Assembly (NCBI GenBank): GCA_030612885.1
Contig: JAUWMZ010000004.1
Span: 17,631 to 81,630 of the forward strand
DNA: 64,000 nucleotides
From: Candidatus Nealsonbacteria bacterium
GTDB taxonomy: Bacteria > Patescibacteriota > Minisyncoccia > Minisyncoccales > JAGMDC01
Direction of reading: 5' to 3'
In this document: positions 3,788 to 63,096 of the stretch, in pieces
Layout: the number at the start of each line of letters is the position of its first letter
Position numbering within the stretch: the first letter of the stretch is position 1
Translations under genes and position numbers: made by a program
The notes under the pieces: model-generated
What the model saw: the letters and a program-made list of their open reading frames with translations, nothing else
What the model was told of the DNA's origin: nothing
Databases searched by the model: none

Positions 3788-5833
3788 TTATTTTTTGTAG
3801 TCGCACTCTTTATTTGAGCATTTGATTTTGCCTTTTTTTGTTTCTACTAAAAGAGAACCGCATTCAGGACATTTCTCATTAATTGGTTTGTCCCAAAGAG
3901 CAAAATCGCATTTTGGATATTGATTGCAGGCGTAAAATGTTTTTCCTTTTCTAGTTTTCTTCTCTATAATTTCTCCTTTGCCGCATTTAGGACATTTGAT
4001 ATTCAAAGACGGTCTTTCCAATGGTTTAGTGTATCTGCATTTTGGAAAGCTAGAGCAAGCGTAAAATTTTCCATATCTGCTCATTTTTTTTACCAAAGGC
4101 GAACCGCATTTAGGACATTTTTCATTTGTTTTTTCTTCAGCAATTTCTTTTTTAGCTATTTCTTTTTCCTTTACTTTTAAATTTTCTTCAAAAGGCTGAT
4201 AAAATTCTTTTATTACCGAAATCCATTTTCTTTTTCCTTCAGATATTTCATCTAAATCCTTTTCCATTTCCGCTGTAAATTTCATATCTACAATTTTAGG
4301 AAAATGTTTAACCAACAAATCATTAACGATGATTCCTATTTCTGTCGGCTCAAATTTTTTATTTTCATTTTTTTGAACATAATTTCTTTCCTGAATTGTA
4401 GAAATTGTAGGCGCATAAGTTGAAGGCCTGCCAATGCCGTTTTCTTCTAAAACTTTAATTAAGGTTGCCTCTGTATATCTGCCTGGCGGCTGGGTGAAAT
4501 GCTGTGAAGGAAGAAGTTTTAAGAGTTCTAATATCTCATTTATCTCAAGTACGGGCAGTTCGTTTTCTTCGTATTTAATGGAATATACCTTTAAGAATCC
4601 ATCAAATTTAAGTATCTGTCCGGTTGTTCTAAAGATATATTCTTTAGCGCTAATATCTACAGTAGTGGAGTCAAAGAGGGCTTGACTCATTTGACAAGCG
4701 ATAAATCTCCGCCAAATTAAATCATAAAGTCGAAGTTGGTTATCATCTAACTTAGCTTTTATCTCTAGTTTGTCAGGCTCTTTATCAGGATAAGCAGGTC
4801 TTATGGCTTCATGGGCTTCTTGAGCGCCTTTTGCTTTTGTTTTGTATTTCTTCAAAAACCCAGCCCAATATTCTTTTCCGTAATTATCAATGATAAATTT
4901 TCTTGCTCCAAACAAAGACATTTCAGATAGATTTAAAGAATCAGTTCTATGATAGGTAATAAGTCCTTTTTCATAGAGGCCCTGGGCAGTTCTCATTGTC
5001 ATTTTAGCGGGCCAGCGCAATCTTTTCCAGGATTCTTGCTGTAGAGTAGAGGTAGTAAAAGGCGGCAAAGGATTTCTTTTTATTTCTTTTTTTTCAATGT
5101 TTGAAATCTTGTATTCAGCTCCTTTTAAATCCTTAACAATCTTTTCCGTTTCTTTTTTTGTTTTAATTCCCAGTTTCGGAATTACTTTCCCATCTTTTTT
5201 AATAAGCTTTGCCAAGAATTCATTTTTCGCGTTGGTTTTGTGTGATTGAAGCTTTGCTTCAATCAGCCAATATTCTTCTGGCTTGAAATTTTTAATTTCT
5301 CTTTCCCGTTCCACTACCAGACGGACAGTTACCGATTGAACCCTTCCTGCAGAAAGTCCTCGGGCGACTTTTTTCCATAAAAGAGGGGAGAGTTTATAGC
5401 CAACCAAACGGTCTAAAATTCTTCTTGCTTGCTGAGCATTAACCAAATTTATGTCAATTTTTCTTGGATTTTTTAAGGCCTGCTCAATTGCTGATTTGGT
5501 AATTTCGTGAAAGACAATCCTTTGATACTTTTTACCATTTAAATTTAAAATTTGGCTTAGATGATAGGCGATTGCTTCTCCTTCTCTATCTTCATCAGTG
5601 GCCAAAATAAGCAGGTCTGTTTTTTGAGATTCTTTTTTAAGTAATGAAACTGTTTTTCTTGCTTTTAGAGGAATAACATATCTCGGCTTAAAATTTTTCT
5701 CTGTGTCTATTCCTAATTCACTTTTTGGCAAGTCGCGAATATGACCATAAGAAGATAGGACCTTGTATTTAGGTCCTAAAAAATTACTGATAGTCTTAGA
5801 TTTTGTAGGGCTTTCAACGATGACTAATTGCAT
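3788..5833 (-). CDS. topA: DNA topoisomerase I
   Basis: TOPRIM start MQLVIVESPTKSKTI, active-site region ITYHRTDS, C-terminal CxxC...CxxC zinc ribbons. Confidence 0.95.
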   Translation of the reverse strand: MQLVIVESPTKSKTISNFLGPKYKVLSSYGHIRDLPKSELGIDTEKNFKPRYVIPLKARKTVSLLKKESQKTDLLILATDEDREGEAIAYHLSQILNLNGKKYQRIVFHEITKSAIEQALKNPRKIDINLVNAQQARRILDRLVGYKLSPLLWKKVARGLSAGRVQSVTVRLVVEREREIKNFKPEEYWLIEAKLQSHKTNAKNEFLAKLIKKDGKVIPKLGIKTKKETEKIVKDLKGAEYKISNIEKKEIKRNPLPPFTTSTLQQESWKRLRWPAKMTMRTAQGLYEKGLITYHRTDSLNLSEMSLFGARKFIIDNYGKEYWAGFLKKYKTKAKGAQEAHEAIRPAYPDKEPDKLEIKAKLDDNQLRLYDLIWRRFIACQMSQALFDSTTVDISAKEYIFRTTGQILKFDGFLKVYSIKYEENELPVLEINEILELLKLLPSQHFTQPPGRYTEATLIKVLEENGIGRPSTYAPTISTIQERNYVQKNENKKFEPTEIGIIVNDLLVKHFPKIVDMKFTAEMEKDLDEISEGKRKWISVIKEFYQPFEENLKVKEKEIAKKEIAEEKTNEKCPKCGSPLVKKMSRYGKFYACSSFPKCRYTKPLERPSLNIKCPKCGKGEIIEKKTRKGKTFYACNQYPKCDFALWDKPINEKCPECGSLLVETKKGKIKCSNKECDYKK

Positions 5834-15330: not shown

Positions 15331-16527
15331 ATGACTTTTTCTAATCTAAATTCAGTTTCCTATTTATTTTTCTTCCTGAAAAGAGAATCAGATAGATTTT
15401 TTACCAGTATTGCTATACGAGGTTTTGGGTTTGGAATGATTACTATATTTGTGCCAATTTATATCTATCAACATTTTAATTCTCTCCCTTTAACTTTTTT
15501 ATTCTTCGCCGGAATTTATGGATTGCAAGGAATTTTAATTCCATTTGGCGGTCAAATAATGATGAAAATCGGCCTTAAAAAAGCTATGCTTGTTTCCCTT
15601 CCTTTTTTTTGGGGATTTTATATCTGTCTGCTTTATTTTGATGTCTCTCAGTTATTTATCTTCTTATCTATAATTTTATATGTGTTGGGAATGATTTTTT
15701 TCTGGCCTGCTTATCATACTAATTTTGCTCGGGTCTCTGAAAGAAAAAAATTAGGAAAAGAAGTAGGAAAACTTAATTTTGTAGTTGCTTTGCCAGGAAT
15801 TTTAGCTCCGGCTATTGGCGGAACTATTATTGCTCTTTTTGGCTACCCTACTTTATTCATAACAGTTTTAGCTGTGCTTTTTAGTTCAGCTATTCCTTTA
15901 TTTTTATCAAAAGATATACATCAAGTTTATACTGACTCTTATCTAAAAGCATATCAAAGAATATTTAAAAAAGAAAATAGATATCACAATTTAGCTTTTG
16001 CCATTTTTGGTATAGAGGCAACAATAAATAACTGCATTTGGCCTATATTTTTAGCTATTTTAGCTATCGGCTATATTGCTATTGGAAGCGTGGCTAGCGT
16101 AGCTTTAATGGTCTCTTTATTTTTTACCTTGTATATGGGCAGAATTACCGACCGTCTGAATAAAACCAAACTTTTAGCCCTTGGTTCAGTACTTACTTCC
16201 GGCGCTTGGCTCGGAAAGTTTTTTGTGTTTAGTCCTATTTCCGCTTTTTTAGCTCAAGGATTTTATAGGTTTGCCAGGACATCAGTGGAGATTCCTTTCC
16301 AAACCATTTTATATGAAAAAGCAGAAGACAAAGGCGCAGAAATTGATGAATTTATTATTTATAGAGGAATGGCAATAGCGCTTCCTCGCTGCGCTTTTCT
16401 TATAGTTTTAGCAGGGCTGTCTTTTGTTATTTCTAACATAAACTTTGCTTTTATTTTGGCGGCGGTCTTTTCGTTAGGATTTATATTTATGGGAAAAATC
16501 CCAGAATTAAAATCCTGGCTTAGATAA
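15331..16527 (+). CDS. MFS-like polytopic membrane transporter
   Basis: 398 aa, about 10-12 hydrophobic segments, loop motif GRITDRLNKTK resembling MFS signature. Confidence 0.5.
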   Translation: MTFSNLNSVSYLFFFLKRESDRFFTSIAIRGFGFGMITIFVPIYIYQHFNSLPLTFLFFAGIYGLQGILIPFGGQIMMKIGLKKAMLVSLPFFWGFYICLLYFDVSQLFIFLSIILYVLGMIFFWPAYHTNFARVSERKKLGKEVGKLNFVVALPGILAPAIGGTIIALFGYPTLFITVLAVLFSSAIPLFLSKDIHQVYTDSYLKAYQRIFKKENRYHNLAFAIFGIEATINNCIWPIFLAILAIGYIAIGSVASVALMVSLFFTLYMGRITDRLNKTKLLALGSVLTSGAWLGKFFVFSPISAFLAQGFYRFARTSVEIPFQTILYEKAEDKGAEIDEFIIYRGMAIALPRCAFLIVLAGLSFVISNINFAFILAAVFSLGFIFMGKIPELKSWLR

Positions 16528-16536
16528 TAGTAAAAA

Positions 16537-17049
16537 ATGCTAAATAATATAGATTTTTATATTTTTCAACAGATAAATAATTGGGCTGGTCAATGGGCAT
16601 GGATTGATATGCTCGGTATTTTTTTTGCTAAATATTTTGGATATATTTTAGTTTTTTGTTTATTTTTGTTTTTAATCAAAAATTCCAAAAAGTATTGGCA
16701 AATGGTTTGGCAAGCAATCTTTGCTGGAATTATCTCTCGTTTAGTTTTTACTGAAATTATTCGCTGGATTTTTCCAAAATCCAGACCCTTTATAGAGAAC
16801 AACGTTAATTTATTACTAAATCATACCAATTCTTCTGCTTTTCCCTCTGGCCACGCTGCTTTTTATTTCGCCATATCTTCGGTTATCTATTTTTATAATA
16901 AAAAAATCGGCATATTGTTTTTTACAGCCAGCTTTTTAATTTGTTTAGCCAGAGTTTTTTGCGGCATCCATTGGCCATTAGATATTCTTGCCGGAGTATT
17001 ACTCGGCATTTTCTCCGGCTGGCTAATAATAAAAATTTTCAAGAAATAA
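16537..17049 (+). CDS. PAP2-family phosphatase (undecaprenyl-diphosphatase-like)
   Basis: KSRPF, PSGH, ARVFCGIHWPLD = PAP2 tripartite motif; membrane protein. Confidence 0.8.
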   Translation: MLNNIDFYIFQQINNWAGQWAWIDMLGIFFAKYFGYILVFCLFLFLIKNSKKYWQMVWQAIFAGIISRLVFTEIIRWIFPKSRPFIENNVNLLLNHTNSSAFPSGHAAFYFAISSVIYFYNKKIGILFFTASFLICLARVFCGIHWPLDILAGVLLGIFSGWLIIKIFKK

Positions 17050-17055
17050 TGTCTT

Positions 17056-17074
17056 GCAAACACCCTGTGTTTGT
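17056..17074. other. conserved hairpin ACAAACAC-NNN-GTGTTTGT family, copy 2
   Basis: gcaaacac-cct-gtgtttgt; same stem sequence as 3731-3749 and 53802-53826. Confidence 0.6.
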
Positions 17075-17076
17075 AA

Positions 17077-18192
17077 ATGTGTATGAAAGATTTAAAAGAA
17101 AAAGTTGGACAATTGTTTATTTGTAGAACCCCGGATAATATTGGCCAAATCGAAATGTTTGTAAATGAAAATATTGGCGGATTTATAATTGGTAAGGGTG
17201 GTGAAATCGTTTCTAAAAGTCAATCTACATTAGAAGGGGATAACTTAGAATCGTTAAAACGATTTGTAAAATTATTGAATAGATTATCGCAGAAGAATAA
17301 AAAAATCCCTTTATTTTTGGCAATTGACGGAGAAGGAGGAAAATATTTTAACAGGCTAAAATCTATTTCTGATTATAAATCTCCACGTTTCTATGGAAAG
17401 AAATTTGAAAAAGATGGAAATCTGGAGTTTTTTAAAAGGGAGGTGAAAAAATTTGCAGAGTTAATGAATCAAATTGGATTTAATATAAATTTTGCACCAT
17501 TGGTTGATTGCGCAAAGAAAGGGTATAAGGGATATCTGGCAGAAGAAGGAGTATTTATTAAAAATAAAGACGATTTAATAAAATCTGAGGTTATAGCAGC
17601 AAACAGGTCTTACTCTGATAAAATGGAAACAGTAATCACATTGGGCTTGACTGCAATGCGAATTTTTCAAGAACACAACATTATACCAACATTGAAACAT
17701 TTTCCTTCGTACGGAACCTTAAAGAAGAATCAAAATCCGCATAGAGTTTTAGTAAAATTAAAATTATCTAAAAACGAAATTTTAGCGCAGATTGAGCCAT
17801 ATAAAAAAGCTTTTAAAAATAGGTGCTATGCAATAATGAAAGGACATGTGATAACTTGTCTGGATTGGAATGCACCTGCATCACTTTCAGTTAAAACTGA
17901 TAAATTTCTAAGAGATAAATTAAATTTTGATGGTCTGGCAGTCGTGGATGAGTTACATATGGGTGCGATAAAACAATATTATTCAAGAATGAACTGTGAA
18001 GAAATTCTTAAAAAATCTGCTGTTGATGCCTTAAAAGTTAATGATATTATTTTAACTAGTCATCCAGAAGATTTTATTGTTATGCGGGATGCAATTGTTA
18101 AAGAAGCAAATAAAAATGAAAAATTTTTAGAGAGAGTTAATAAAGTATACAATAAGATATTGTATTATAAAAAAATCATAAATCTGCTATAA
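17077..18192 (+). CDS. glycoside hydrolase family 3-like (NagZ-type) protein
   Basis: LAIDGEGG, NFAPLVD, LKHFPSYG parallel GH3 motifs iDqEGG / aPvlD / KHFPGHG. Confidence 0.6.
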   Translation: MCMKDLKEKVGQLFICRTPDNIGQIEMFVNENIGGFIIGKGGEIVSKSQSTLEGDNLESLKRFVKLLNRLSQKNKKIPLFLAIDGEGGKYFNRLKSISDYKSPRFYGKKFEKDGNLEFFKREVKKFAELMNQIGFNINFAPLVDCAKKGYKGYLAEEGVFIKNKDDLIKSEVIAANRSYSDKMETVITLGLTAMRIFQEHNIIPTLKHFPSYGTLKKNQNPHRVLVKLKLSKNEILAQIEPYKKAFKNRCYAIMKGHVITCLDWNAPASLSVKTDKFLRDKLNFDGLAVVDELHMGAIKQYYSRMNCEEILKKSAVDALKVNDIILTSHPEDFIVMRDAIVKEANKNEKFLERVNKVYNKILYYKKIINLL

Positions 18193-18214
18193 TGATAAAA
18201 AATAATCTAAAAAT

Positions 18215-19135
18215 ATGGCAAAAAAAATGATAATCTTAAAAAGATATATTAAAAACCCTATTCTTAAACCGATAAAAACCCATCATTGGGAAAAATACGT
18301 CTACAACTGCGCTGCAATAATCTTGGATAATAAAGTTCATATAGTTTATAGGGCTTTAGGTAGGGATAGAATATCAAGGTTTGGTTATGCATCAAGTAAA
18401 GATGGTTTTAATATTGATGAAAGGTTAGAGAAACCAATTTTTATCCCAGAGTTAGAATCTGAAAAACCAATGGTAAAGTTCAATAATTCTGGCACTGAGG
18501 ACCCCAGATTAACAAGGATTGGCAACAGAATTTACATGCTTTATGCTGGTGTAAATGGCAGAACAGCCCAATCATCTATAGCTTCAATTGAAGTTGAAGA
18601 TTTTTTACAAAAGAAATGGAAATGGAAAAGGCATGGGGTTCTTTTTCCATATATTGATGATAGAAATGCTGGTTTATTTCCAGAAAAGATAAATGGTAAA
18701 TATGTCCTTTATACAAGGTTTATGCCAAATATTTGGGTGAGTTATTCAAGAGATTTGAAAAACTGGTCAAGACCAAAAATAATAATGAAACCAAGAAAAG
18801 GGATGTGGGATGAGTACAAGATTGGTATAGCCGGACCTCCCATAAAATTGAATAATTCTTGGCTATTGATTTATCATGGAGTTGAACAAAAGCAAGTTGG
18901 AAGAATTTATAGATTAGGATTTGCTTTAATAGATCTTAAAAACCCGGAAAAAATTTTATATAGATGTGAAAAACCAATTTTTGAACCAGTCAAGGATTAT
19001 GAATTAAAAGGACAAGTTCCAAATGTAGTTTTTTCATGCGCTGCTGTTGTAAAAGAAAAGACACTTTTTGTTTATTATGGCGGCGCCGACACTGTAATAG
19101 GGGTAGCTACTGCAGACATTTCTAAACTTCTTTGA
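18215..19135 (+). CDS. GH130-family glycosidase/phosphorylase
   Basis: 5-bladed-propeller-type pattern YNCAAI..., GTEDPRLTRIGNRIYMLY, DDRNAGLFPEKINGKYVLYTR. Confidence 0.65.
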   Translation: MAKKMIILKRYIKNPILKPIKTHHWEKYVYNCAAIILDNKVHIVYRALGRDRISRFGYASSKDGFNIDERLEKPIFIPELESEKPMVKFNNSGTEDPRLTRIGNRIYMLYAGVNGRTAQSSIASIEVEDFLQKKWKWKRHGVLFPYIDDRNAGLFPEKINGKYVLYTRFMPNIWVSYSRDLKNWSRPKIIMKPRKGMWDEYKIGIAGPPIKLNNSWLLIYHGVEQKQVGRIYRLGFALIDLKNPEKILYRCEKPIFEPVKDYELKGQVPNVVFSCAAVVKEKTLFVYYGGADTVIGVATADISKLL

Positions 19136-37646: not shown

Positions 37647-38243
37647 ATGAAGTTTATCTTAGGAAAAAAATTAGAAATGTCTCAGTTTTTTAATGAAAAA
37701 GGAAAGGTTATTCCAGTAACCTTAATTGAAGCCGGACCTTGTTATGTCGCTCAAGTAAAGAATAAGGAAAAAGATAAATACGAAGCGGTTCAGCTTGGTT
37801 TTGAAAAAATACTTAAAAAGAAGAAAATAAAAAAAACAATGAAAGGAAAAGAATATAGATATTTAAGAGAGTTTAAAAATGGTAAAGAATACAAGATAGG
37901 GGACGAAATTAATGTTTCGCTTTTTCAAGAAGGAGATAAAGTAAAAATTTCTGGAATTTCTAAAGGAAAAGGATTTCAGGGGGCAGTGAAAAGATGGGGA
38001 TTTCATGGAAGAAATGCTACTCACGGAGTTAAGCATGAGCAAAGAACCCTGGGTTCAGTAGGAAGTGCTTATCCGGAAAGAGTAATCAAAGGAAAAAAAA
38101 TGCCCGGCAGAATGGGAGCCGAGAGAGTGACAGTTAAAAATTTAAAAATAGCGAAAGTTGATAAAGAAAATAACTTATTGGCAGTTGAAGGAGCAGTGCC
38201 AGGAAGACGCGGGACACTACTTGAAATACGTTCGGGAATATAG
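37647..38243 (+). CDS. rplC: 50S ribosomal protein L3
   Basis: Start moved to ATG 37647 (MKFILGKKLEM); SKGKGFQGAVKRWGF; last codons and TAG lie in a repeat-element terminus. Confidence 0.95.
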   Translation: MKFILGKKLEMSQFFNEKGKVIPVTLIEAGPCYVAQVKNKEKDKYEAVQLGFEKILKKKKIKKTMKGKEYRYLREFKNGKEYKIGDEINVSLFQEGDKVKISGISKGKGFQGAVKRWGFHGRNATHGVKHEQRTLGSVGSAYPERVIKGKKMPGRMGAERVTVKNLKIAKVDKENNLLAVEGAVPGRRGTLLEIRSGI

Positions 38244-38248
38244 GCAAT

Positions 38249-38396
38249 CGCTCGGAAAGTAATTTTTAGGAGACGCTCATTCGCTTCCAGCGAGCGAATT
38301 CGCTCAGTTCTCGGCAAAATTCGAGCACTCAAGATGTTGAGTGCTCGACCAAGCAATTTTGCCTCGAGGTGCTCCATAAAAATTACTTTCCTCGCT
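38249..38396. mobile_element. GC-rich ~148-nt multi-stem repeat element, copy A (MITE-like / structured RNA)
   Basis: About 95% identical to 58959-59108. 15-bp outer stem ggaaagtaattttta/taaaaattactttcc; hairpins attcgct/agcgaat and cgagcactcaa/ttgagtgctcg; ggcaaaatt/aattttgcc. Confidence 0.8.
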
Positions 38397-38481
38397 TAAA
38401 TATTTTTGTGAAACTTGTTGCCTCGCTTTTCAGAAAGATTAGAAAATAAAAAAAAATCGGCAACATTACAACATTATAACA

Positions 38482-45245: not shown

Positions 45246-45277
45246 TTTCCTTGCTTAAAATTTTAACTATTAAATTT

Positions 45278-45861: not shown

Positions 45862-46034
45862 CGCTCGGGAATATAGTTTTTAGAAAATTTGCTCGGCAAC
45901 AAAGTTTCAAAGTACCGACCCTCAAAATCCCAGCGAGATTTTGGGGTCTAAGTTCTCAACGGCTGGCTTCTCGCTTCACTCGGAGACCATGCCCAGCCGC
46001 CTCCGAAGTTTACTTTGAAACTTATTGCCTCGCT
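45862..46034. mobile_element. GC-rich multi-stem repeat element, divergent copy C (same termini, different interior)
   Basis: Termini cgctcggg... and ...ttgcctcgct; stems aagtttcaaagta/tactttgaaactt, gaccctcaaaatc/gattttggggtc, ggctgg/cccagcc. Confidence 0.65.
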
Positions 46035-46081
46035 TAATTTTATTTGTAATTCGTTTTCATTCGTAAGAATATTAAAATACA

Positions 46082-58307: not shown

Positions 58308-58973
58308 ATGCTTAGTTTATCTGCTAAAATTAGAAAAGAAGAAAAACCAAGTGTCCTTAGAAGTAAGGGTCTTTTGCCCGCGGTTCTATATGGTCCCAAG
58401 ATTAAAAACTTTTCTTTACAGATAGATGAGAAAGAATTTGAAAAAATTTTTAAAGAAGCAGGCGAGAGCTCATTGATTAAATTAAAAGTTGATGAAAATG
58501 AATTCTTGATTTTAATTCACGATTTCCAAAAAGACCCATTAAAAGGAAATTTTATCCATATTGATTTTTATCAACCTGCTCTTGACGAAGAGACCGAAGC
58601 TACCGTGCCTTTGGAGTTTATAGGTGAAGCACCGGCAGTGAAAGAATTAGCAGGAACATTAGTTAAAAATATTAAAGAATTAGAGGTAAAAGCTTTGCCT
58701 CAAAATCTTCCTCATGATATTAAAGTTAATGTGGAAAGTTTAAAAACCTTTGAAGACAGTATTACAGTAAAGGATTTAAAAATTCCAGAAGGAGTAAAAA
58801 TATCAAAAGAGCCGGAGGAAGTCATAGCTTTAGTTACTCCGCCAGAAAAGGTAGAGGAAGAATTAGAAAAGCCAGTTGAGGAAAAAGTAGAGGAGGTGGA
58901 GAAAGTAGGCGAGAAGGAAAAAGAGGAGAAGAAAGAGGAGGAAGGAAAAGAAGAAATCCGCTCGGAAAAGTAA
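58308..58973 (+). CDS. rplY: 50S ribosomal protein L25/Ctc-type with Glu/Lys-rich tail
   Basis: Start placed at ATG 58308 (MLSLSAKIRKEE...LRSKGLLPAVLYG); last 5 codons and stop lie inside repeat copy B. Confidence 0.88.
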   Translation: MLSLSAKIRKEEKPSVLRSKGLLPAVLYGPKIKNFSLQIDEKEFEKIFKEAGESSLIKLKVDENEFLILIHDFQKDPLKGNFIHIDFYQPALDEETEATVPLEFIGEAPAVKELAGTLVKNIKELEVKALPQNLPHDIKVNVESLKTFEDSITVKDLKIPEGVKISKEPEEVIALVTPPEKVEEELEKPVEEKVEEVEKVGEKEKEEKKEEEGKEEIRSEK

Positions 58974-59108
58974 TTTTTAGGAGACGCTCGTTCGCTTCCA
59001 GCGAGCGAACTCGCTCAGCTCTCGGCAAAATTCGAGCACTCAATGTTTTGAGTACTCGACCAAGCAATTTTGCCTCGAGGTGCTCCATAAAAACTACTTT
59101 TCCTCGCT
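58959..59108. mobile_element. GC-rich ~150-nt multi-stem repeat element, copy B
   Basis: Collinear with 38249-38396; differences include a compensatory A-T to G-C pair swap and paired 1-nt indels in the outer stem. Confidence 0.8.
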
Positions 59109-59117
59109 TTATTCTTA

Positions 59118-63066: not shown

Positions 63067-63070
63067 TTTA

Positions 63071-63096
63071 CTCCATAAAAATTATTTTTCCTCGCT
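63071..63096. repeat. 3'-terminal remnant of the GC-rich repeat element
   Basis: ctccataaaaattatttttcctcgct versus the copy A end ctccataaaaattactttcctcgct. Confidence 0.6.

Follow-up and report, generated by a model that had tools for sequence, protein, structure and literature searches.

The window analysed here, a 64,000-nucleotide (nt) stretch of a Candidatus Nealsonbacteria contig, carries two closely similar copies of a GC-rich palindromic element at ribosomal protein genes, and both proved to be members of a wider family of non-coding, hairpin-forming repeats of ~105-160 nt. Copy A (positions 38249..38397, plus strand) lies between the rplC stop (38243) and the rplD start (38482), and copy B (58959..59109, plus strand) lies at the end of rplY; both are W-type elements, scoring 177 and 166 bits, respectively, with a covariance model built from four close copies. 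A 23-mer of the core has exactly two occurrences in the window and none in 100 shuffles. An earlier note, made from the bare sequence, had described the two copies as collinear with about eight differences, and alignment of 38249-38396 with 58959-59108 bore this out, revealing 8 substitutions and 2 single-base insertions or deletions. Copy B also supplies the final codons of rplY (CGC TCG GAA AAG TAA, encoding RSEK and the stop), as the same note had read.

Read 5' to 3' on the plus strand, copy B comprises a 5' tail CGCTC (58959-58963), the 5' arm of an outer stem (58964-58983), hairpin 1 (58990-59010) with the loop TCCAGCG (58997-59003), a linker TCGCTCAGCTCTC (59011-59023), one arm of stem 2, GGCAAAATT (59024-59032, partner 59066-59074), an apical hairpin (59033-59058), an unpaired ACCAAGC (59059-59065), the 3' arm of the outer stem (59083-59103, with a bulged A at 59087) and a 3' tail TCGCTT (59104-59109). 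The other family members follow a common plan, in which the tails (5' CGCTCGG...CCTCGCTT 3') are single-stranded and conserved, and the outermost 5-7 nt (CGCTCGG and CCTCGCT) are not inverted copies of each other. The outer stem measures 19-22 bp in every member and is closed by GG/CC, with a single bulged A on the 3' arm in most types; at least five unrelated outer-stem sequences were found, each perfectly self-complementary, and the 5' arm contains TAA and TAG in two frames. Hairpin 1, which is often present, displays the loop (T)CCAGCG(A) on 8 different stems, always on the plus strand. The linker contains TCGCTCA, and the second stem carries the apical hairpin at one fixed position, where it may be present, absent or replaced by any of at least seven unrelated sequences, followed by the unpaired ACCAWGC, the return arms and the tail TCGCTT. 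Pairing of the hairpin 1 loop (AGCGA) with the TCGCT tails as a guide was considered and rejected, as the loop variants CCAACGA and CCACCGA do not co-vary with the tails.

Comparison of the two window copies gave the first indication of how the fold is maintained. In hairpin 1, an A to G change at 58990 is accompanied by a T to C change at 59010, converting ATTCGCT/AGCGAAT to GTTCGCT/AGCGAAC and retaining the base pair, as had been noted earlier. The minimum-energy fold of copy B pairs 58990 differently (TCGTTCGCT/AGCGAGCGA); the hairpin 1 pairing was preferred because 8 stems surround the same loop in the family. The paired indel of the outer stem, an extra A in GGAAAAG and an extra T in CTTTTCC, is present as described, but it falls in homopolymer runs, and L020 (loci outside the window are given as L and a number) shows an unpaired intermediate with 3 A and 4 T. 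Two further changes, G to A at 59054 and T to C at 59094, are uncompensated as reported, giving C.A and A.C mismatches on the plus strand and G.U pairs on the minus strand, and none of the differences between A and B disrupts a minus-strand pair. Of the four remaining substitutions, three lie in the apical loop (59043-59046) and the fourth in the linker (59019). By a rough estimate, four stem substitutions would include one exactly compensatory pair by chance with a probability of ~0.02, which is suggestive, and convincing only with the wider family. The substitutions (A>G, T>C three times, G>T twice, A>G and G>A) are not adenine-specific, and a template and variable repeat pair of a diversity-generating retroelement was rejected on this ground.

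More than 20 combinations of site and element type were identified in Parcubacteria-like metagenome contigs by a pattern scan, the covariance model and retrieval of gene neighbours. The metagenome pattern scan, which demanded both inner stem arms, yielded 18 loci; a scan of a genome collection with a 3'-end pattern gave one true match (L003) and one doubtful match (L002), and further loci came from the neighbours of close L4 and L25 homologues. The window itself is assigned to Parcubacteria/Minisyncoccales by its best named protein matches. The scan pattern was also fitted by L016:1536-1638, where a tRNA gene on the opposite strand has AT-rich inverted flanks (GTAATTTTTA ... ATAAAAA); this match was judged a coincidence because the family tails are absent. 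Searches against Rfam 15, with the window at gathering scores and with the copies and four loci at permissive E-values, returned only two tRNAs and hairpin matches at chance level. A tRNA-like element was likewise rejected, as ARAGORN reports only the two real tRNAs in the window, and a viral, plasmid or phage origin was rejected, with zero matches in plasmid and phage collections.

To quantify covariation, 23 distinct sequences were aligned to the covariance model. In this model-based alignment, 96.4% of cells hold standard pairs and both sides have changed in 31 of 42 pairs. None of 500 shuffles reached any of these measures, and sliding the 3' partner by 1-3 columns left 44-61% of cells paired. 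An independent prediction with RNAalifold recovered the outer stem as well as the base of stem 2; 19 of 25 pairs showed double changes. The earlier suggestion of selection on the fold is thus upheld insofar as pairing is maintained family-wide, but such selection need not act at the level of RNA. Across the aligned cells, 689 pairs are Watson-Crick, 10 are G.T (a wobble on the plus strand), 13 are A.C (a wobble on the minus strand) and 13 are other mismatches, so that G.T accounts for ~1.4% of cells and wobbles are no commoner than other mismatches. A model-free symmetric scan for single mismatches within perfect helices gave a similar distribution (G.T 6, A.C 5, other 7). The strand-specific tolerance of G.U expected of an RNA helix is absent from both strands, and many of the double changes swap bases by transversion or replace an entire stem. 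The near-absence of wobbles points to complementarity being kept at the DNA level, whether by templating between arms, exchange of modules or selection for a DNA hairpin, rather than by stepwise compensation in RNA.

These counts bear directly on the proposal of the earlier note that the element is the source of a functional minus-strand RNA of ~150 nt, antisense to the ribosomal protein genes. That proposal drew on the two uncompensated changes of copy B, both of which read as G.U on the minus strand, and folding appeared to agree with it: the minus strand of copy B folds 10 kcal/mol better than the plus strand (-72.3 against -62.1 kcal/mol), and minus-strand energies are lower in all copies. 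However, the advantage vanishes against composition-matched shuffles, the z-scores against dinucleotide shuffles being equal on both strands (-7.4 to -8.1 for copies A and B, both strands); since the minus strand is also G-rich, the energy difference is compositional. The wobble types are symmetric across the family (10 against 13 cells in the alignment, 6 against 5 in the model-free scan). Nor were promoter-like or terminator-like sites found in the minus-strand flanks of A and B, and an intrinsic terminator, with a GC-rich stem and an immediate T-run, was found on neither strand at A or B, where the base of the stem is AT-rich. The element moreover decays freely in relatives. Taken with the origin of the 59094 mismatch discussed below, these results lead us to regard an antisense RNA as very improbable.

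The mismatch at 59094 is compensated in the rplY orthologue L029, where the inner 5' arm GTAG stands opposite a 3' CTAC. This orthologue has a tandem extra 5' unit and has lost one of its two repeated hairpins along with an arm of stem 2. Because L029 holds both the tandem unit and the compensated arm, the simplest account of the A.C mismatch in copy B is that a deletion between tandem 5' units brought an 'A' arm and a 'C' arm together; L017 has this C too. In the interpretation that we prefer, the compensatory differences between A and B as a whole reflect family-wide upkeep of complementarity together with recombination of tandem 5' units, and not an antisense RNA.

Copies A and B also share a minus-strand open reading frame (ORF) beginning MEHLEAKLLGR, as the earlier note had pointed out. 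It has an ATG with an upstream GAGGAAAG and is common to both copies, as a small protein gene would be. Most of the A/B differences within it alter the amino acid, however, and in both copies it extends past the element into unrelated sequence. In relatives, whose sequences were read by hand, the ORF is lost through early stops or frame shifts that vary with the length of the inserted hairpin. We therefore find a small minus-strand protein scarcely credible and agree with the view already taken that the element is structural rather than coding. On the plus strand, the third frame of A and B (38249-38397 and 58959-59109) is open throughout, with ~49 codons (ARKVIFRRRSFASSERIRS...), and both remaining frames meet stops within the 5' arm. 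Depending on the frame, an element inserted in a protein tail could therefore be read through.

Orthologous sites in related genomes revealed gain, loss and exchange of elements. The rplC|rplD spacer has no element in L022 and L023, and L024 has another element type there; L022 also has none at rplF|rplR, and the element at the 3' end of rplY is missing in L025 and L026. L028 has the same rplY junctions as copy B with the whole interior deleted. The same element type occupies different loci in related genomes, and different types occupy one locus, as at rplN|rplX (L012 and L018) and rplC|rplD (the window and L024). Nested composites with extra 5' units or second 3' ends were observed, as were solo ends. 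At the 'empty' rplY site of L026 (10640-10700), the sequences GCAGAGAAGTAATTTTTTATAG and TTCGGCAATAAAGTTTCAAAGTAT resemble the 5' arms of two types, and the site may have been eroded rather than never occupied. In L025 (2336-2368; protein P0127), another GC-rich palindrome (TCCGCCTCTGCTGAAGCTTCGGCGGG) lies in frame in the rplY tail, which reads ...SASAEASAGKEEK in two relatives without the family element.

The orientation of the elements was uniform. Although the scans were strand-blind, the plus strand of the element coincides with the coding strand of the adjacent gene or genes at every one of the >20 site/type combinations. L005 holds two copies 4 kb apart in opposite orientations (224-359, plus; 4359-4496, minus), each matching its own gene. 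A link to transcription is therefore favoured over one to replication direction, on a single case that assumes that neither origin nor terminus lies between the two copies. Copies lie 0-40 nt downstream of stop codons or overlap the last codons of a gene. Ribosomal protein operons hold 5 of the ~15 scan-derived sites, and others follow dnaK, recA, mreB, ftsK and mraZ, which suggests a bias to highly expressed operons.

This distribution bears on the main rival explanation, in which the element is a host-useful, cis-acting structure in the sense RNA, such as a site for processing by RNase III or another enzyme, or a 3'-end or intercistronic stabiliser, which spread in a mobile-like manner and was kept for its function in RNA. 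Repetitive extragenic palindromic (REP) elements and Correia elements have reported host-useful roles of this kind in RNA processing and stabilisation. The sense orientation of all copies, including the opposed pair in L005, their position just past stop codons, the share of sites in ribosomal protein operons and the conservation of the loop and bulge motifs on co-varying stems would all be expected of such a structure. Against it, G.U on the sense strand is not favoured over A.C (10 against 13 cells), the same sites are empty or badly truncated in close relatives, one arm of stem 2 is gone in L029, and zero Rfam families matched. We regard a sense-RNA structure as a tentative possibility, clearly short of probable.

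The conserved, strand-specific loop sequences, the single bulged base in the outer stem of most types, the strict orientation and a complementarity that is Watson-Crick only could also reflect a non-selfish host signal acting on folded single-stranded DNA, in priming, recombination or topology, comparable to single-strand origins or integron attC sites. Integron attC sites have the core sites RYYYAAC/GTTRRRY and are found with gene cassettes and an integrase. Like them, the present elements keep structure over variable stem sequence and are co-oriented with genes, and their strand-specific features include a bulged base as well as conserved termini and a terminal structure that varies. However, the element termini lack the RYYYAAC and GTTRRRY core motifs, an integrase was not seen, and the neighbours are core operons (ribosomal protein, dnaK/J, recA and mraZ) and not cassettes. 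Even within 4 kb, the orientation of an element tracks that of the local gene, and the sites are dispensable in close relatives. A host signal of this type is accordingly judged quite improbable.

The family was further compared with known dispersed repeats, and it resembles Correia elements, Rickettsia palindromic elements and REPINs (REP doublets forming hairpins) in kind, while failing the defining sequence features of each system compared. Correia repeat-enclosed elements of Neisseria are ~100-155 bp long and non-coding, with ~26 bp terminal inverted repeats and a TA duplication, and occur in both orientations. The present family shares with them its size, non-coding nature, terminal inverted repeats, many dispersed copies and internal-deletion variants; Correia elements are also often co-transcribed with neighbouring genes and form a long stem in RNA, which we count as a likeness. 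Unlike Correia elements, the family is of unrelated sequence, shows no visible duplication, occurs in the sense orientation only, has tails that are not inverted copies and has outer stems that differ completely between subtypes. Rickettsia palindromic elements (~100-150 bp) occur in the reduced genomes of host-dependent bacteria, inserted in frame inside genes. The present elements are likewise palindromes of about this size in reduced genomes and can join coding sequence, as in the rplY and rplC tails, but they lie between genes or at the very 3' end of one, carry stop codons of their own and are unrelated in sequence.

REP and REPIN elements, which are served by RAYT (REP-associated tyrosine transposase) enzymes of the Y1 HUH type, and the palindrome-associated elements derived from IS200/IS605 are recognised as folded hairpins and not as double-stranded inverted repeats, a mode of recognition also proposed for the present family, and have asymmetric ends and no target duplication. 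Asymmetric ends, intergenic clusters or composites and a possible secondary use as messenger RNA stabilisers are features common to REP/REPIN elements and the present family, and the precedence of structure over sequence and the asymmetry of the ends also recall IS200/IS605 ends. Unlike REP/REPIN elements, the family has no conserved GTAG head, and each element is a single large, branched hairpin in place of an inverted pair of short (20-40 nt) REP hairpins; strict transcription orientation is no REP feature, and the sequence examined showed no RAYT or TnpA gene. Mycobacterial interspersed repetitive units (MIRU) are direct repeats arranged in tandem and containing small ORFs that lie between cistrons in operon orientation and overlap flanking stop and start codons, and pneumococcal BOX elements are built of interchangeable modules that form stable stem-loops and are not strictly oriented. 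The family is like MIRU in its operon-sense orientation and intercistronic position and like BOX in its modular stem-loops; unlike MIRU it is palindromic, unlike BOX it is strictly oriented, and it has sequence similarity to neither.

With about even confidence, we interpret copy B as a member of a non-autonomous mobile palindromic family, similar to miniature inverted-repeat transposable elements (MITEs) or REPINs, that is spreading and decaying in Parcubacteria-type Patescibacteria. Several features by which MITEs are recognised are present: the elements are small and non-coding, have a 19-22 bp terminal stem, are dispersed and show insertion polymorphism. In the proposed pathway, a trans-acting enzyme would read the folded element through its tails, loop and bulge and not through the stem sequence, and only copies competent to fold would propagate. 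Templating or repair from arm to arm, together with swapping of modules, would keep the arms Watson-Crick complementary in DNA. Insertions would survive just past stop codons or at the extreme 3' end of genes, and only in the transcription-sense orientation, and deletions between internal direct repeats would erode copies to solo ends.

Several points weigh against this interpretation. No consistent target-site duplication was found at A, B, the other unique junctions or three empty sites, the last being too diverged for exact boundaries, and no autonomous partner or transposase with matching ends was seen in ~300 kb of sequence. Strict co-orientation, a conserved loop and bulge and enrichment at highly expressed genes are atypical of classical MITEs and would be compatible with a host-useful RNA as well. 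The alignment used to measure covariation had been fitted to the model structure, and several of its rows are orthologues and not independent. The 18 loci of the metagenome scan were chosen for intact inner arms, and the covariation of the outer stem therefore rests on members found otherwise (L018:3049, L022, L024 and L006:9647).

Possible, if doubtful, is a new class of element that is specified by its structure and tied to transcription in its spread or retention, either as a mobile element of single-stranded DNA or as a mobile RNA module of 'operon punctuation'. In the DNA version, the element would act on the non-template strand of strongly transcribed operons, and an enzyme would recognise it by its tails, its CCAGCG loop and its ACCAWGC bulge. 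In the RNA version, the module would punctuate the most highly expressed transcripts of Patescibacteria.

Altogether the window holds three full copies and five fragments of the family, all on the plus strand. The third full copy, of the O type (45890..46035), lies between the rplF stop (45859) and the rplR start (46082) and was detected by the covariance model with 27 bits (E 2e-4). It has the same architecture on a wholly different outer stem (GGCAACAAAGTTTCAAAGTAC / GTTTACTTTGAAACTTATTGCC), with a hairpin 1 of CAAAATC-CCAGCGA-GATTTTG, an unpaired ACCATGC and a decayed apical hairpin, and shows 89% mean column identity to the L024 element at rplC|rplD. Directly upstream of it lies a solo 5' unit, CGCTCGGGAATATAGTTTTTAGAAAATT (45862..45889), that resembles the 5' arm of the L022 element at rpsH|rplF. 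A similar but truncated 5' unit, CGTTCGGGAATATAG(GCAAT) (38229..38248), adjoins copy A and supplies the last codons of rplC (38229-38243), such that L3 ends ...EIRSGI* in the window and ...EIRG* in relatives. Downstream of copy A, a remnant of an O-type 3' end and its right flank (TTTGTGAAACTTGTTGCCTCGCT ... AAAAAAAATCGGCAAC) occupies 38405..38465; copy A therefore sits within the remains of an older element. The two other fragments are a solo 3' end, ACTCCATAAAAATTATTTTTCCTCGCT (63070..63096), found by local BLAST between the rpsB stop and the tsf start, and a 17-nt footprint, TTTCCTTGCTTAAAATT (45246..45262), straight after the rpsH stop, which is identical to the 3' end of the full element at that site in L022 and L023. 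Additional candidate copies from searches with 6-7-mers of the tails (16209/16384 and position 2) were rejected as chance matches in coding sequence.

The relatives contain other repeats and islands. Between rpmC and rpsQ, L022 (14441-14633) and also L023 have three tandem units of a different repeat with the hairpin CTGCC-TCGCTAATGCTC-GGCAG, whose loop holds both tail motifs of the family in reverse order (CCTCGCT-AAT-GCTCGG) and may represent a junction formed head to tail or a favoured target. In L025, ~120 nt of GC-rich and apparently structured sequence upstream of rpsB (5600-5720; CGGCGGCGAGAATACCCCGCTGTTTACAGCGGGG...) are unrelated to the family and could be a leader or another repeat. 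In L026, ~2.7 kb without called genes (16090-18850) contain several GC-rich islands and may be a ribosomal RNA gene or a field of repeats. Between fusA and tuf, the str operon region of L022 (5344-6171), and also of L023, carries small toxin-antitoxin-like genes, with weak YafQ/HigB and faint PhdYeFM Pfam matches, and two unannotated ORFs.

Assembly is affected as well. A contig of the European Nucleotide Archive from another assembly, with an identical rplD (L001:1-60), begins within copy A, as expected at a repeat. In L008 (1494-2483), S10 is joined directly to L24 across an element, with a left flank that matches L011 and a right flank that matches L012; this contig is probably chimeric across copies. 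Such repeats thus appear to interrupt assemblies within core operons and can give rise to chimeric contigs.

The genomes of Patescibacteria, most of which are uncultured, are tiny and generally regarded as poor in repetitive DNA. A limited literature search covering Patescibacteria, the candidate phyla radiation, Parcubacteria and Saccharibacteria did not find a comparable repeat family, and the present one is apparently undescribed. Its members are built of modules and nest in one another, and they reshape the ends of ribosomal protein genes as well as spacers within core operons. Annotators may take an element for a small gene or an RNA gene. Its transcription-strict orientation, its conserved loops on co-varying stems and its wobble-free complementarity form an unusual trio for MITE-like repeats of bacteria, and offer a handle for finding the enzyme or the RNA-level role behind the family.

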